NCBI GenBank assembly: GCA_965276755.1 | Contig: OZ255625.1 | Location: forward strand, 1,020,784-1,084,783 | From: Acetobacteraceae bacterium | GTDB taxonomy: Bacteria; Pseudomonadota; Alphaproteobacteria; Acetobacterales; Acetobacteraceae | Reading direction: 5' to 3' | DNA length: 64,000 bases | Shown here: positions 4,813 to 32,682 of the stretch, one piece after another | Layout: each line of letters starts with the position of its first letter | How positions within the stretch are numbered: position 1 is the first letter of the stretch | Program-made: the position numbers and the translations under genes | The notes under the pieces: generated by a model | Told to the model about the DNA's origin: nothing | Seen by the model: only the letters and a program-made list of their open reading frames with translations | The model's database searches: none

Positions 4813-6135
4813 GGGTTTGTCAGGAAATAGCTGAATCGGGTTGCGCTTGCGGGTAAGTGGGGGGATTCCCCGGTCACGGAGCGCTTTCGTAGCGTGCGTA
4901 CATGATTGATACCAGCGCCATTCGTGATCGTTTTGTTTCTCTTGCCCCGCATCTTGATGAACGAGGCCGTCGCTCCTTCGCTGCGGCCGAGGCGCGTTCG
5001 GCCGGGTATGGCGGGATCGCCGCTGTTGCCCGGGCGACCGGTATTGCACCGAGCACGATCGGCCGGGGCTTGGACGAGCTTGCTGGCGTCGCCGAGGTGC
5101 CAACTGACCGCAATCGCCGTCCCGGAGGCGGCCGCAAAGCGTTGACCGCGACAGACCCGGCACTGCTGGACGATTTGTTGGCGCTGGTCAGCCCGAGTGA
5201 ACGCGGCGACCCGATGTCGCCCCTGCGCTGGACCTGCAAAGGCCTACGCCGCCTGGCTGCTGAATTGCGCGCCATGGGGCATAAAATCAGCCACACCGTG
5301 GTTGGCGAATTGCTCCGCGGCCAGAAATTCAGCCTCCAGGCCAACAGCAAGACCCGCGAAGGTGACAGCCACCCGGATCGCGATGCGCAATTCGCCCACA
5401 TCAATACGAGCATCAGCCGCGCCCTGGCCGAGCAGCAGCCGGTGATATCCGTCGACACGAAGAAGAAGGAGCTTGTCGGCGACTTCAAGAATGCTGGCCG
5501 GGAATGGCGGCCACAGGGTGATCCCGAGGAGGTCCGCGTGCACGACTTCCTGATCAAGGAGATTGGTCGGGCGGTGCCATATGGAATCTACGATCTGGCC
5601 GCCAATGCCGGCTGGGTCAGCGTCGGCATCGATCACGACACTGCGCAATTCGCCGTGCAGACAATCCGCAACTGGTGGCACGGGGTCGGGTGCAAGCGCT
5701 ATCCGGGCGCGCGCCACCTGACGATCACCGCCGATGGTGGCGGCAGCAACGGCTCGCGCGTGCGCTTATGGAAGCGTGAACTGCAAAAGCTGTCCAATGA
5801 ACTCGGCATCAAGATCCGCGTCCACCACCTGCCGCCGGGCACCAGCAAATGGAACAAGATTGAGCATCGGCTGTTCTCATTCATCAGCATGAACTGGCGC
5901 GCCAAGCCGCTTGTCAGCTATCGCGTCATGGTGGACCTGATCAGCGCGACCACGACCAAGACCGGCCTGACCGTGCAGTGTGAACTCGACACCAGCACCT
6001 ACCCAAAAGGGATTGTGGTGAACGATCAGGAAATGTCCGAACTCAACATCCTACGCGACGAGTTCCACGGCGAATGGAACTACACGCTCCAACCTTGCAA
6101 CAAAACAGGTCGCGCGGTTAATTCCTGACAGACCC
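4813..6135 (+). mobile_element. ISAzo13-family insertion sequence
   Basis: Imperfect IRs GGGTTTGTCAGGAAATA / TAATTCCTGACAGACCC; TTA direct repeats at 4810-4812 and 6136-6138. Confidence 0.9.
4902..6128 (+). CDS. ISAzo13-family transposase
   Basis: LDERGRR, GDPMSPLRWTCK, ISVDTKKKELVG, ITADGGGSNG, TSKWNKIEHRLFS motifs; uninterrupted 408 aa. Confidence 0.95.
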   Translation: MIDTSAIRDRFVSLAPHLDERGRRSFAAAEARSAGYGGIAAVARATGIAPSTIGRGLDELAGVAEVPTDRNRRPGGGRKALTATDPALLDDLLALVSPSERGDPMSPLRWTCKGLRRLAAELRAMGHKISHTVVGELLRGQKFSLQANSKTREGDSHPDRDAQFAHINTSISRALAEQQPVISVDTKKKELVGDFKNAGREWRPQGDPEEVRVHDFLIKEIGRAVPYGIYDLAANAGWVSVGIDHDTAQFAVQTIRNWWHGVGCKRYPGARHLTITADGGGSNGSRVRLWKRELQKLSNELGIKIRVHHLPPGTSKWNKIEHRLFSFISMNWRAKPLVSYRVMVDLISATTTKTGLTVQCELDTSTYPKGIVVNDQEMSELNILRDEFHGEWNYTLQPCNKTGRAVNS

Positions 6136-6138
6136 TTA

Positions 6139-7166
6139 GAGTCTGACTCGAATCGGCATTGTAACAGGCTAAACCGTTGATCTCATTCGGGATCAAGATG
6201 ATACCGCCCCCAGCCTGCGCGACATCAGCTTGACGCTGGCGATGTAGAGCCAAGTCGTGGCGCTTGCGATGCTCGCCTCCACATCCTTTGCCAGGCGCCG
6301 GTTGCGACTCAACCAGGCAATCGTGCGTTCCACCACCCAGCGGCGCGGTAACAGGACAAAGCCTTTCGCCGCGTCGGAGCGCTTGACGATCTCGATCGTC
6401 CAATCGCCTTTGCCCATCAACGCGTTTTTCAGCTTGTCGCCGGCGTAACCACCATCGGCAAACACATGACGCAGCCAGGGATAGAGGTGGCGCACGCTTT
6501 CCAACAGCATCGGTGCGCCGTCGCGATCCTGCACGTCCGCGGGATGCACGATCATGCCCACGGGCAGACCAATGGTGTCGGTCAGAAGATGCCGTTTGCG
6601 GCCTTTGATCATCTTCTCGGCCGCATAGCCGCGCGGACCGCCGGACTCCGTGGTTTTGACCGATTGGCTGTCGATCACCCCGCCTGTCGGGCTCGCCTCG
6701 CGGCCGGCCGCCTCGCGCACAGCCATCAGCATGACATGATTGATCGTTTGCCAAAGCGCGTTGTCTCGCCAGGCGTAGAAGTAACGCTGCACGGTCGTGT
6801 AGGGCGGGAACCCCTTTGGCAACATGCGCCACTGGCAGCCCGACTGGATGATGTAGAAGATGGCATTGACGACCTCTCGCAGGTCATGCGCGCGCCGGCG
6901 CCCGCAGCTGGCGGGGGCAGGCATATGCGGCTCGATGAGCGTCCATTCCTGATCGGTGGTATCGCTTGCATAGCGCAGCCCATCTCGCTGATACTGCGGG
7001 CGCGTGATTTCAGTCCAGGCCATGTATTTCCCTCGGGTCTTCGCAAACGCGAGAGAATCGTAGCCGCTGAAATCACGCAACCCCTGTCTTGAAGCTAGAC
7101 GGCCGGAATCGGTAAACGGCTGAAAAGACTCGGGACTGCGTTGCAGAACCGTTCCGGGTCAGCCTC
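6139..7166 (-). mobile_element. IS5-family (IS1031-like group) insertion sequence
   Basis: Imperfect IRs GAGTCTGACTCGAATC / GTTCCGGGTCAGCCTC with GAG termini; flanked by TTA (6136-6138, 7167-7169). Confidence 0.88.
6193..7023 (-). CDS. IS5-family transposase
   Basis: RYASDTTDQEW, GCQWRMLP, IDSQSVK, KGRKRH, FADGGY, RWVVERTIAW motifs. Confidence 0.93.
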   Translation of the reverse strand: MAWTEITRPQYQRDGLRYASDTTDQEWTLIEPHMPAPASCGRRRAHDLREVVNAIFYIIQSGCQWRMLPKGFPPYTTVQRYFYAWRDNALWQTINHVMLMAVREAAGREASPTGGVIDSQSVKTTESGGPRGYAAEKMIKGRKRHLLTDTIGLPVGMIVHPADVQDRDGAPMLLESVRHLYPWLRHVFADGGYAGDKLKNALMGKGDWTIEIVKRSDAAKGFVLLPRRWVVERTIAWLSRNRRLAKDVEASIASATTWLYIASVKLMSRRLGAVSS

Positions 7167-10400: not shown

Positions 10401-12227
10401 ATGGACATCCGCAACATCGCTATCATCGCCCACGTCGATCATGGCAAGACCACGCTGGTCGACCAGCTCCTCCGCCAATCCGGTTCCTTCCGCGAACACC
10501 AGGTCGTCGCCGAACGCGCGCTCGACCGCAATGACCTCGAGCGCGAACGCGGCATCACCATCCTTGCCAAATGCACCAGCGTCGTCTGGCGCGGCACGCG
10601 CATCAACATCGTCGACACGCCGGGCCACGCCGATTTCGGCGGCGAGGTCGAACGCATCCTCAACATGGTCGATGGCGCCATCGTTTTGGTCGACGCCGCA
10701 GAAGGCGTGCTGCCGCAAACCAAATTCGTCGTCGGCAAAGCGCTGGCGCAGGGCCTCAAACCCATAGTCGTGGTCAACAAGATCGACCGTCAGGACGCGC
10801 GCGCCGACGAAGTGCACAACGAAGTCTTCGACCTCTTTGCGGCCCTAGGCGCCACCGACGAGCAGCTCGATTTCCCCATGCTCTACGCCTCCGGCCGCCA
10901 GGGCTGGGCCACCGTGGCGCTGGATGGCGAGCGCAAAGACCTCGCCCCCATGTTCGACCTCGTCCTGTCCCACGTCCACGCCCCGGAACTGGACAAGGAC
11001 GCCCCCTTCGGCATGGTCGCCTCCATCCTCGACTACGACAACTTCCTCGGCCGCGTACTGACCGGCCGCATCGAACAAGGCCGCGCCCGCCTCAACATGC
11101 CGCTGCGCGTCACGCGCGCCGACGGCTCGGTGGTCGAAACCGGCCGCCTGACCAAGCTCATGGGATTCCGCGGCCTGGAACGCGTGGTGGTCGAGGAGGC
11201 CGAAGCCGGCGACATCATCGCCATCGCCGGCATGACGGAGGCGACCGTGCCCGACACGATCGGCGCCATGGAGCTAGCCGGCGCGCTGCACGCCACCCCC
11301 GTCGATCCGCCCACGCTGGCCATGACCTTCCGCGTCAACGATGGCCCCCTGGGCGGCCGCGAGGGCAAGAAAGTCACCTCCCGCCAGATCCGCGACCGGC
11401 TGCTGCGCGAGGCCGAAGGCAACGTCGCCATCAAGATCACCGAATCCCAGGAATCCGAGGCGTTCGAAGTCGCCGGCCGCGGCGAACTCCAGCTCGGCGT
11501 GCTGATCGAAACCATGCGCCGCGAGGGCTTCGAACTCACCATCGGCCGCCCCCGCGTCCTCACGCGCGAGCACCCCGACACCGGCGCGCGCGAAGAACCC
11601 TTCGAGGAAGTCCTCGTCGATGTGGACGAGCCCTACGCCGGCGTGGTCGTGGAAAAACTGTCGCGCCGCAAAGGTGTCATGCAGGACATGCGCCCGTCCG
11701 GCGGCGGCAAGGTGCGGCTGACCTTCCACATCCCCTCGCGCGGCCTGATCGGCTATCACGGCGAATTCCTCACCGACACGCGCGGCACCGGCATCATGAA
11801 CCGCATGTTCAGCGGCTACGAAACCTGGGCCGGCAACATCGAAGGCCGCCGCGCCGGCTCGCTCATCAGCTCCGAGGGGGGCGCCGCCGTGCAATACGCG
11901 CTCTGGTACTTGCAAGAGCGCGGCACGCTTTTCGTCAGCCCCGGTGAGGCCGTCTATGTCGGCATGATCCTGGGCGAGCATTCGCGCGAGAGCGATCTGG
12001 ATATCAATCCGATCAAGGAAAAAAAGCTGACCAACATTCGCGCTGCGGGCAAGGATGACGCAATGCTGCTGATCCCGCCGCGCCGCATGAGCCTGGAACA
12101 GGCCATCGCGTATATCGAGGACGACGAGCTGGTCGAGGTGACGCCAGGCGCCATCCGCCTGCGCAAGCGCTACCTCGACCCGCACGAGCGCAAGCGCCAC
12201 GAGCGCCGCGCCAGCGACGCGGCTTAG
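10401..12227 (+). CDS. typA: Translational GTPase TypA/BipA
   Basis: [54 protein letters not shown] motifs; 608 aa. Confidence 0.98.
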
Positions 12228-12258
12228 GCGAAGTAAAGCAAGGCAAGCGAGAAGCAAG

Positions 12259-12334
12259 GCCAGGGCTCTGCCCTGGACCCGGCAAGGGGCTCTGCCCCTT
12301 GCATTCCCGCTGGGGCCTGAGGCCCCAGACCCCA
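12259..12334. repeat. Family C repeat, inverted, with an extra hairpin
   Basis: GCCAGGGCTCTGCCCTGG, AAGGGGCTCTGCCCCTT and CTGGGGCCTGAGGCCCCAG hairpins. Confidence 0.8.
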
Positions 12335-12372
12335 AATTTAAGCTCGGCGCCGTCATGCGTCCGGCGTCCGAC

Positions 12373-12411
12373 CGTCATTGCGAGCCGCCTCTTCGGCGGC
12401 GTGGCAATCCA
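12373..12411 (+). repeat. CGTC-tagged REP-like palindrome
   Basis: CGTC-ATTGC-GA-GCCGCC-TCTTC-GGCGGC-GTG-GCAAT-CCA. Confidence 0.7.
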
Positions 12412-12493
12412 AGGAACTCCCCACCACTACAACGTCGGCAGCTTGCGCCGGACGTCATCATAGCGCAGCTTCGTTGCAAAGTACAAGCAGGCA

Positions 12494-12796
12494 ATGACCT
12501 TGGGCGAAAAAACCCCCGCCATCTACATCGTCACCAACAAGCGTCACGGCACCCTATACGTCGGCGTCACCTCCAACCTCATCAAACGGATCCACGACCA
12601 TCGAACCGGCGCCTCGCGAGGCTTCGCCAGCCAACACAGCTGCACCCTCCTCGTCTATTATGAACTGCACGCCAATATGTCCACTGCCATAGCTCGCGAG
12701 AAACAAATCAAATCCGGCTCACGCGCCAGGAAGATTGCTCTGATCGAACAGCAAAACGGTGCATGGTGCGATCTCTACGCGGATATTATTGTGTAA
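12494..12796 (+). CDS. Small GIY-YIG nuclease (YhbQ/UPF0213-like)
   Basis: AIYIVTN...TLYVGVTSNLIKRIHDH...AIAREKQIK...LIEQQN motifs; 100 aa. Confidence 0.92.
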   Translation: MTLGEKTPAIYIVTNKRHGTLYVGVTSNLIKRIHDHRTGASRGFASQHSCTLLVYYELHANMSTAIAREKQIKSGSRARKIALIEQQNGAWCDLYADIIV

Positions 12797-12832
12797 CCGG
12801 CTAACTGCCAGGCGAATTCAGGCGTTTTCAGC

Positions 12833-13487
12833 TCACCTCGCTGCCGCCTTCATCAGCCACCACATGACGGACGCCTGAACACCATACGCCATACCGCCAT
12901 CGATATCGTCCGACGCACAAATGCGATGGGCCCCGAAGAGCTTGCTGGCAGCATCGCAAGCTGTATAAGCAATCTTTTCAGCCGACCCGGCACGTAGAAG
13001 AAATCGGTTGAACTTGGATGCGTATGGCATTGTTGGATGCGTATGGCATTGCTGGCCAATACTGCGAAGGTATTTCCGCCCGCGGATGGGTAGCAAGCAT
13101 CAACGTGTAAACGGAAGTGCATGACGACGCTAACCTCAACGCTTTTGCCTCATCGTCAAGAACGCACCGGTGATAATCACTCCTGCCTGCCCAAGCATCC
13201 ATCGACCACATCCACTTTAATTCTAGCAGCACGCTCGGGGTTTCATCTCGAGCCGCAAGTAGTGCAAGATCCACATGGTTCCATTCCCTACGAACAATCA
13301 CCGGCACGTTTTTAAGTCTCTTATAGAGACCGAATGCCATGCGATCACGAAAATGATGTTCGGGTTTGCTGGTCAACGCCAGATAGGCAAGCTCATTTGG
13401 CGCAAAGGAGTTCGCGGCGTCGGCTACCGCCTCACGCAAAAGATTGTCATGATTATCGGAAGCCACCCTTTGCTCTCCATCGAACAA
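12833..13487 (-). pseudogene. Hypothetical PD-(D/E)xK-like protein frameshifted by a 19-bp duplication
   Basis: RREWNHVDLA...LLELKW motif; deleting one 19-bp copy joins ORFs 12978-13487 and 12833-13096 into 211 aa. Confidence 0.7.
13014..13051. repeat. Perfect 19-bp tandem duplication
   Basis: TTGGATGCGTATGGCATTG twice (13014-13032, 13033-13051). Confidence 0.95.
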
Positions 13488-13604
13488 GACCCGCCGCTCT
13501 CTACTTCTAAACCATGTTCCTATGTTCGATCAAAGCGCCTGTTCCTCCGTCCCGACCTGCCACGCCCCCCGGCAGCCGCGCAAGCCCTGTCAAATTTGCC
13601 GCCC

Positions 13605-14786: not shown

Positions 14787-14795
14787 TCACCCCCC

Positions 14796-14849
14796 AACTG
14801 ACAAAAGTTTTTTGGTCCTTTTTTTCAAAAAAGGACTGCTACTCTTCCT
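14796..14849. repeat. Family B repeat
   Basis: AACTGACAAAAGTTTTTTGGTCCTTTTTTTCAAAAAAGGACTGCT. Confidence 0.85.
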
Positions 14850-14888
14850 ACCCTTGACTACCCCCTCCCCAACCCGCATCTAGTAAAT

Positions 14889-32335: not shown

Positions 32336-32514
32336 GGCGGGAGTGTAGTGAACATAGAGGGAACATGGCAAGCGAAAACTCGGCGCCGCTGCTGCGCTGA
32401 CATCCATGGTCCGCAATGAAATATAAGCCGCTATGTGGCCGCCCGGCGGTACGTTATTGAAGCAATTCGAATGAGTAACACCAATCAGCAGAAAGTTTGA
32501 CTCTCTGAATAAGG

Positions 32515-32617
32515 TTGGGGGAGATGTGCCATCCCCCCCCAAACCCCCCGTCATTATTTAAGACGAGGCGCAAAAAACTCGACGGGGGGTCTGGGGGGGA
32601 TGGCACATCTCCCCCAG
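32515..32617. repeat. Family A inverted doublet
   Basis: TTGGGGGAGATGTGCCATCCCCCCCCAAACCCCCCGTC-28 nt-GACGGGGGGTCTGGGGGGGATGGCACATCTCCCCCAG. Confidence 0.92.
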
Positions 32618-32682
32618 TCTTTCTCACCTAAATTATGTGTCAGTTTCAACCCTGACCGGTATAACAAGGTGACACTCACGCG

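Follow-up and report, generated by a model that had tools for sequence, protein, structure and literature searches.

Does a small nuclease gene lying beside a tagged hairpin act on that hairpin, and to which known system would such a pair belong? The question is raised by a locus in a 64,000-nucleotide stretch of the genome of an Acetobacteraceae bacterium (assembly GCA_965276755.1, contig OZ255625.1, positions 1,020,784 to 1,084,783 of the forward strand), hereafter the window. Here a gene for a 100-residue protein consisting of a single GIY-YIG domain follows a hairpin with a CGTC tag, of the kind known as repetitive extragenic palindromes (REPs). We put at roughly 85% the probability that the gene encodes a nuclease of the Ssn family, that the hairpin at 12373-12411 is its cognate repeat and that the unit is a horizontally acquired, one-sided motif-ssn-motif cassette.

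CGTC-tagged REPs were defined by Di Nocera, De Gregorio and Rocco (BMC Genomics 2013; PMC3733652). They comprise a tag, a stem starting with AT, a loop of 4-5 nucleotides (nt) and a CCA tail, occur mostly in Alphaproteobacteria and "apparently lack a dedicated transposase". A first-pass annotation of the window still took the class to have no established enzyme; this held for the 2013 account but ceased to hold in March 2025, when Chenal et al. (Nat Commun 2025; PMC11893778) described SsnA of Neisseria meningitidis, a 94-residue GIY-YIG protein flanked by the repeat CGTCATTCCCGCGMAVGCGGGAATCYRG (NTS). SsnA binds NTS as single-stranded DNA only, and its cut falls a few nt 5' of the motif and is confined to the motif strand. 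The GTC tag is important in cleavage, the C that follows the palindrome in binding, and the enzyme reduces transformation by NTS-bearing DNA. Purified SsnA of N. wadsworthii cleaves single-stranded DNA immediately 5' of hairpins of this kind. Homologues (CDD cd10448, GIY-YIG_unchar_3) number in the thousands and are flanked by Ssn-related motifs (SRMs), with at least one at 71% of homologues and both flanks occupied (within 500 bp) at 42%. The same authors liken NTS-ssnA-NTS to insertion sequences and to the systems formed by REPs and their REP-associated tyrosine transposases (RAYTs), as a resemblance in layout (PMC11893778).

A literature search for links between GIY-YIG enzymes and REP, REPIN/RAYT or miniature inverted-repeat transposable elements returned nothing relevant, and in the library searched no paper other than Chenal et al. 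2025 mentions SsnA together with GIY-YIG. The partnership of nuclease and repeat suggested in the first-pass annotation is borne out as a conserved pair, whose characterised homologues bind and cut such hairpins, and loses its novelty, having been published in 2025 (PMC11893778). The locus is a new, one-sided and partly degraded member of an already published system.

Membership of the Ssn family

The open reading frame (ORF) is intact and single-copy in the genome. It matches Pfam GIY-YIG (PF01541, E 1.3e-14) over residues 9-80 and contains no other domain. Homology to SsnA was measured against the orthologues of N. wadsworthii, N. dentiae and N. musculi, in Neisseria genomes that were found through their repeats and then searched with the window protein. 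The single match in N. wadsworthii 9715 (45% identity, E 8e-24) lies between NTSvar doublets, which is the arrangement of the SsnA purified by Chenal et al. The N. dentiae orthologue (48% identity, E 6e-28) lies between canonical NTS motifs, and that of N. musculi is likewise 48% identical (E 2e-29). These E values (8e-24 to 2e-29) fall below the blastp threshold of E < 1e-10 to N. meningitidis SsnA by which the published study defined homologues (PMC11893778).

The alignment with the Neisseria orthologues shows five invariant residues, Y11, Y22, R32, H36 and E69, which are the predicted catalytic residues. With a constant offset of +5, Y11, Y22 and E69 correspond to SsnA Y6, Y17 and E64, the residues that were mutated in the published work (PMC11893778). 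Similarity to UPF0213 (PDB 1ZG2) is marginal (E 0.1). The homology to SsnA orthologues, the aligned catalytic residues, the marginal similarity to UPF0213 and the low score against the homing-endonuclease profile TIGR01453 together place the gene, as judged from its sequence, in the Ssn family.

Other small GIY-YIG genes were seen in passing. In N. lactamica NS19 and N. mucosa the only one found is a UPF0213-like paralogue without flanking NTS (in N. lactamica at L227 1489-1764). Besides uvrC, the genome studied here has two ORFs with GIY-YIG-like N-termini (C1:937420-937683 and 3643351-3643461), in open frames of 410 and 261 amino acids, neither of which resembles the ssn gene.

Association of gene and repeat across homologous loci

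The pairing was examined at 80 loci encoding relatives of the window protein (46-63% identity) from Alpha-, Beta- and Gammaproteobacteria, Bdellovibrionota, Nitrospinota, Nitrospirota, Cyanobacteriota, Chloroflexota, Planctomycetota and Bacteroidota. Within 300 bp of the gene, modules of the form ATTGCGA...GCAAT number 3.14 per kb; over the remaining 755 kb their density is 0.070 per kb, which makes the enrichment 45-fold (Poisson P ~1e-181). Among the 72 loci with both flanks available, 45 bear a module on one flank or more, 38 of them on both flanks; the flank orientations are +/- at 20 loci, -/+ at 9 and same-sense at 13. Most loci without the module bear other (C/T)GTC-tagged hairpins, followed by CCA, with stems such as ATCGCGAG, ATTCCGGC, ATCCCGG and ACCCTCGC. 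When loci were instead collected by the exact NTS pattern, only 2 of 120 had a homologue nearby, because most matches to that pattern are solo repeats.

The type of repeat follows the type of nuclease. Mapped on a maximum-likelihood protein tree, repeat type requires 3 changes, against a mean of 11.6 in shuffles and with none of 200 shuffles as low; C-rich-stem and Neisseria-type motifs all fall within one cluster of the tree. Enrichment of CGTC-type hairpins near homologues (here within 300 bp) and co-variation of nuclease clade with repeat were two of the checks proposed at first pass, and both favour the pairing. Phyla are intermingled in the tree, a sign of horizontal transfer.

The hairpins define a subclass, here called the GCGAG type, in which the GTC tag is conserved, ATTGC pairs with GCAAT over 5 bp, the internal loop reads GA/GNR, the inner helix varies and the tail is CC. 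The inner helix is represented by 39 distinct stems in which the sequence varies and the pairing is kept: four or more base pairs close 37% of the inner segments and only 1.6% of shuffled ones. Such diversity with retained pairing argues that the hairpin is maintained by selection. Co-occurrence holds at the level of genomes too: among 41 related genomes, at least one GCGAG-type motif is present in 13 of the 17 with ssn and in 7 of the 24 without (Fisher P 0.004). One locus has an unusual layout: in Bradyrhizobium sp. DASA03120 (L010, ~5400-6900) ssn lies inside a tandem array of motif doublets with a period of ~167 bp that extends on both sides.

The hairpin and its surroundings

The hairpin next to the window gene is built from the CGTC tag (12373-12376), an outer stem of 5 bp (ATTGC, 12377-12381, paired with GCAAT, 12404-12408), an internal loop of GA opposite GTG, an inner helix of 6 bp (GCCGCC, 12384-12389, paired with GGCGGC, 12395-12400), a 5-nt terminal loop (TCTTC) and the tail CCA (12409-12411). 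The order is therefore CGTC, ATTGC, GA, GCCGCC, TCTTC, GGCGGC, GTG, GCAAT, CCA. Modelled as single-stranded DNA, the 131-nt region containing it folds at z = -3.4. The gap to the ATG of the gene is 82 nt. At first pass the element had been read as a CGTC palindrome ~80 nt 5' of a stand-alone 100-residue GIY-YIG gene. Its position and that description are correct; the palindrome is real and is not a perfect one, since its two helices are interrupted by the internal loop.

A second inverted pair had also been described around the hairpin, and it exists (Table 1). A perfect 9-mer pair is expected ~0.4 times in ~320 nt of DNA with 64% GC (our own estimate) and none was found around the other 11 genomic copies of the hairpin, so that this pair is probably a chance feature of the one locus. 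The inverted half-site near the gene start has two mismatches to the left arm and no matching right arm, overlaps the start codon, and is weak; it could be chance. That the motif might provide the start codon (GCAATGAC over the ATG) was considered and dropped, the overlap being attributed to chance, because most homologues begin at an independent ATGAA(G/A)CA....

Three GC-rich REP hairpins separate typA from the tagged motif. The stretch that holds the second and third of them (12281-12340) recurs many times in G002, G003 and G004, genomes of the same genus that all lack an intact ssn. The three hairpins are not part of the Ssn system. An Rfam scan of 12000-13200 at permissive E values gave chance-level matches only, so the hairpin belongs to no RNA family described there, and no intrinsic terminator-like tail follows it. 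Elsewhere in the window, an AT-rich hairpin (GGTCCTTTTTTTCAAAAAAAGGAC) upstream of iscR (14795-14850) is a member of yet another repeat family, one that recurs many times in same-genus genomes.

Table 1 Coordinates, in the window, of the features of the ssn locus
Feature	Position	Strand	Basis
ssn-family gene, 100-residue single-domain GIY-YIG nuclease	12494-12796	+	Pfam, homology
Ssn-related motif, a CGTC-tagged REP of GCGAG type	12373-12411	+	read from sequence
Predicted single-strand cleavage zone, a few nt 5' of the CGTC tag	12366-12372	+	analogy to SsnA only
Partial tag and left arm (CGTCATGCG), 22 nt 5' of the full motif	12351-12359	+	read from sequence
Possible second, inverted motif remnant (GGTCATTGCCTG)	12488-12498	-	mismatch scan, weak
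Outer 9-nt inverted pair CGTCCGGCG/CGCCGGACG around the motif	12358-12366 / 12446-12454	none	inverted-repeat search
Three GC-rich REP hairpins (other, abundant families) that separate typA from the motif	12260-12328	none	repeat search
typA/bipA GTPase, conserved upstream neighbour	10401-12227	+	Pfam
Low-GC islet with ssn and the 169-residue ORF	12450-13550	none	composition profile
169-residue ORF in the islet	12978-13487	-	open reading frame

Motif copies in the genome and its relatives

The genome contains 12 GCGAG-type motifs, against 0 for a reversed-pattern control. The copies other than that beside ssn carry CGTC, TGTC or related NGTC variants of the tag and are followed by CCA. In the nearest congener, G003, whose typA is 93% identical, there are 0 such motifs and no ssn homologue. 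Compared with G003, the solo motif at genome position 1017480-1017511 represents a precise insertion of 41 nt (TATT-GTC-ATTGC-GA-GGCCA-CT-TGGCC-GAA-GCAAT-CCAGAAG) located directly after a stop codon; in three other genomes (G002, G004 and G005) no motif follows that stop codon either. The empty-site comparison with G003 also covered the 10 other solo motifs, and only one site in all aligned cleanly: at sites 1, 3 and 4 the motif is missing in G003 and rearrangement of the intergenic DNA, rich in REPs, prevents a clean alignment, and at the remaining sites there is too little match in the G003 draft.

Partial copies show a bias in position. Around 218 motifs, half-copies with a tag and left arm but no right arm occur 21 times upstream and 9 times downstream (binomial P 0.04). 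They lie 18-60 nt upstream of full motifs, sometimes two or three in tandem, and in this genome they precede the motifs at 543402, 1098801, 1150680, 1770224, 2713595 and 2987033 as well as that in the window. By analogy with SsnA, this is the side on which the enzyme would be expected to cut.

A genome of the same family (G006, 91% complete) has 38 GCGAG-type motifs and no detectable ssn homologue; either its ssn gene is unassembled or the motifs persist without the gene. Most of its motifs are arranged as head-to-head doublets ~60 nt apart.

Origin of the cassette

The ssn gene lies in an islet of 1.1 kb with 52-56% GC, against 64% for the genome. Relatives share typA and not the genes downstream of it, and synteny stops at the typA 3' end. 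Draft contigs of relatives break at this same point, and no clean empty site for the islet was found in them. Of four same-genus genomes, three have no ssn and the fourth, G004, has a decayed copy (L358, G004:C372, 2534-2903) whose fragments, of 44-50% identity, lie between two inverted GCGAG-type motifs. The genes flanking this G004 cassette have counterparts ~2.2 Mb apart in the genome studied here. The closest relatives of the window protein within the family reach at most 54% identity, against 63% in other phyla. We conclude that the ssn cassette was acquired horizontally.

The islet also holds a single-copy ORF of 169 residues with no match in Pfam, NCBIfam, PADLOC or PHROGs, which is not linked to ssn at the other loci. 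To the eye, a D...ELK stretch in it recalls PD-(D/E)xK nucleases.

Family A doublets

The repeats designated Family A, very abundant in this genome and in the congener G003, are REPIN-like doublets of the form CTGGGGGAGATGTGCCATCCCCCCCAG-ACCCCCC-GTCAT...CGAC-GGGGGGT-CTGGGGGGGATGGCACATCTCCCCCAG, in which two inverted G/C-rich hairpins of ~27 nt surround a GTCAT...CGAC spacer. One copy lies in the window at ~32510-32640, and the genome has ~558 half-units. Four of the 12 GCGAG-type motifs (genome positions 1088917, 1098801, 1789857 and 2414012) lie within ~60 nt of the Family A spacer end (CCCCCCGTC...), an adjacency that might stem from a common insertion preference or from mutual targeting of intergenic sites rich in REPs.

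Family A doublets had been said at first pass to carry CGTC at their inner ends, and the GIY-YIG nuclease had been extended to them as a partner. The letters are present (...CCCCCCGTCAT...CGACGGGGGG...), and GTC stands beside a long palindrome; the GTCAT lies in the spacer between the hairpins and is not a tag abutting an AT-initiated stem. The extension is not supported: tag, stem and tail all differ, and G003 maintains at least 115 Family A half-units with neither ssn nor a GCGAG-type hairpin. A Family A hairpin (CTGGGGGGGATG..CATCTCCCCCAG) has neither the stem starting with AT nor the CC tail, two features that Ssn motifs conserve and that SsnA requires for binding (PMC11893778), and Family A flanks ssn at none of the 80 loci. 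What speaks for a partnership, beyond the GTC and the adjacency of four motifs to the Family A centre, is that no RAYT or Y1 transposase that could otherwise serve these doublets is present: the whole genome has no match to PF01797 (Y1/RAYT transposase), whereas control genomes do match. On balance we regard it as very unlikely that the nuclease is the partner of Family A. The doublets do not depend on the GIY-YIG gene and, given a genome without Y1/RAYT and a congener without ssn, they are left without an identifiable enzyme.

Proposed mechanism and rival explanations

We propose the following from what is known of the characterised homologues. Ssn enzymes are single-domain GIY-YIG endonucleases of ~95 residues that recognise a tagged hairpin only in single-stranded DNA. 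The window protein would bind the folded + strand of the hairpin when this DNA is single-stranded and would nick that strand a few nt 5' of the CGTC tag (Table 1), leaving duplex DNA and RNA uncut. Its role would then be in the processing of single-stranded DNA, either incoming transforming or conjugative DNA or replication intermediates; that it limits incoming single-stranded DNA, as in Neisseria, is a speculative assignment of its physiology. The unit itself would be a one-sided, probably degraded motif-ssn-motif cassette, with 11 further gene-less motifs across the genome.

This reading brings together the homology to SsnA with catalytic residues kept, the pairing of gene and motif, the co-variation of clade and repeat, the horizontal origin and the lineage-specific motif copies. 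Several findings weigh against it. The published degenerate SRM pattern matches NTS and matches neither this hairpin nor the common short form CGTCATTGCGAGCGAAGCGAAGCAATCC, and its 27 matches in the genome are at chance level (22-40 in simulated genomes). Only the upstream flank of the gene is occupied, as had been seen at first pass, and a mismatch scan found no second motif copy within 1.2 kb downstream. The genomes of N. lactamica and N. mucosa carry NTS repeats and gave no match to the window protein, from which it follows that the presence of a motif need not imply a detectable homologue.

Could the gene and the hairpin be unrelated? The single occupied flank and the location of the hairpin in an intergenic hotspot for REPs would fit a REP that happens to adjoin an unrelated small gene. 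Such chance adjacency is contradicted by the 45-fold proximal enrichment, by the repeat-type test on the protein tree and by the co-occurrence of gene and motif among genomes, and we rejected it as practically negligible. A related proposal keeps the gene functional and makes the hairpin an unrelated REP or terminator: the protein would be a free-standing homing endonuclease of the Seg or I-TevI type, cutting a double-stranded empty allele. Weak profile matches to homing endonucleases exist (TIGR01453 at 20 bits; PHROG 314 and 7168 at E ~3e-4), but the TIGR01453 cut-off is 56 bits and the match is limited to the GIY-YIG core, and the protein, at 100 residues, has no DNA-binding extension. Homing would also leave unexplained why hairpins are conserved beside the gene across phyla, and a terminator would be expected to have the tail that is missing here. 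We find the homing proposal scarcely credible.

A further possibility is compatible with the Ssn assignment and adds a function to it. In the manner of the REPtrons compared below, the nuclease would disperse its hairpins, with motif-ssn-motif as a selfish cassette and the solo motifs as its non-autonomous derivatives. Cassettes bracketed by motifs are found in many phyla, and the protein tree cuts across taxonomy. Locally, the gene sits in a low-GC islet, is intact in none of four congeners, and is represented in G004 by the decayed, motif-flanked copy between genes whose counterparts lie ~2.2 Mb apart in G000, the genome studied here. The contrast of 12 motifs here with 0 in G003 and the precise 41-nt insertion point the same way, as does the analogy with insertion sequences raised in the discussion by Chenal et al. 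(PMC11893778). Against dispersal stand the role demonstrated in Neisseria, which is to lower transformation (PMC11893778), and flank orientations that are mixed, unlike strict terminal inverted repeats. The family member G006 has 38 motifs without a detectable ssn, and only one insertion site is clean, the others not being alignable. Because its motif is on one flank only, the copy in the window is probably immobile now. We know of no strand-transfer or transposition activity in GIY-YIG nucleases of this type. Dispersal by the nuclease is therefore possible but doubtful in our judgement. The more general suggestion that Ssn nucleases, beyond processing these repeats, are the long-missing mobilising enzymes of the CGTC-tagged REP superfamily is one we would make only tentatively, at clearly less than even odds; it would fit the lineage-specific motif copies, the 41-nt insertion, the agreement of motif type with nuclease clade across phyla and the accumulation of half-copies on the expected cut side.

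Significance

Which enzyme serves CGTC-tagged REPs was an open question from 2013 to 2025, and the Ssn paper answered it for binding and cleavage; the Ssn locus in the window adds no new principle to that answer. What it adds is modest, in the first place a distinct nuclease clade together with a motif class, the GCGAG type, that the published search pattern misses. Since the pattern misses it, the published association figures (71% and 42%) may be underestimates. The range of Ssn specificity is probably wider than has been sampled, which matters for the proposed use of these enzymes as tools for single-stranded DNA.

The genomes also offer a natural contrast, with the gene and 12 motifs in one species and neither in its nearest sampled relative, and such a pair of species is suited to asking whether the enzyme creates copies of the motif. 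The abundant Family A doublets, for their part, have no identifiable enzyme, neither RAYT nor Ssn. If Ssn nucleases do mobilise CGTC-tagged REPs, this would be a second bacterial repeat-enzyme system, parallel to RAYT/REPIN and built on a hydrolytic GIY-YIG nickase.

Comparison with known systems

UPF0213/YhbQ proteins (PDB 1ZG2) resemble the window protein in consisting of a GIY-YIG domain alone, of ~90-100 residues. They differ in that sequence similarity is marginal, the N. lactamica paralogue went undetected with the window protein, and no tagged hairpins flank it.

REPtrons consist of RAYT genes (Y1/HUH, related to IS200/IS605) flanked by GTAG-tagged REPs, with REPIN doublets. As in the Ssn system, a single-copy enzyme gene lies among its tagged hairpins, recognition is of the single strand and gene-less copies are dispersed. 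The chemistry differs, with tyrosine transesterification by the HUH enzyme against hydrolytic nicking by GIY-YIG, and so does the tag, GTAG against CGTC. This genome has no Y1 transposase, and mobilisation by Ssn is unproven.

The CGTC-tagged REPs (PMC3733652) share with the GCGAG type the unpaired CGTC or TGTC tag, the stem starting with AT, the 5-nt loop and the CCA tail. Both are repeated, 12 times in this genome, occur mostly in Alphaproteobacteria and frequently form head-to-head doublets, for the GCGAG type in other genomes. Their stems are continuous over 8-9 bp, whereas the stem here is interrupted; no enzyme gene was found with them, and the copies here are few and mostly solitary.

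The closest counterpart is Ssn/NTS itself (PMC11893778). In both, a single-domain GIY-YIG protein of ~95 residues has the same Tyr/Tyr/Glu set, with 45-48% identity between the window protein and the Neisseria orthologues, and its gene lies beside a (C/T)GTC-tagged hairpin with a CC tail; both have gene-less motifs elsewhere and a patchy spread across phyla. Neisseria NTS has a continuous stem of 8 bp, in contrast to the 5-bp outer stem, GA/GNR loop and variable inner helix found here. At the window locus one flank is occupied, the hairpin falls outside the published SRM pattern and the genome has 12 copies, against hundreds in pathogenic Neisseria. The GCGAG-type motif follows the overall plan of NTS with an interrupted stem and a nuclease clade of its own.

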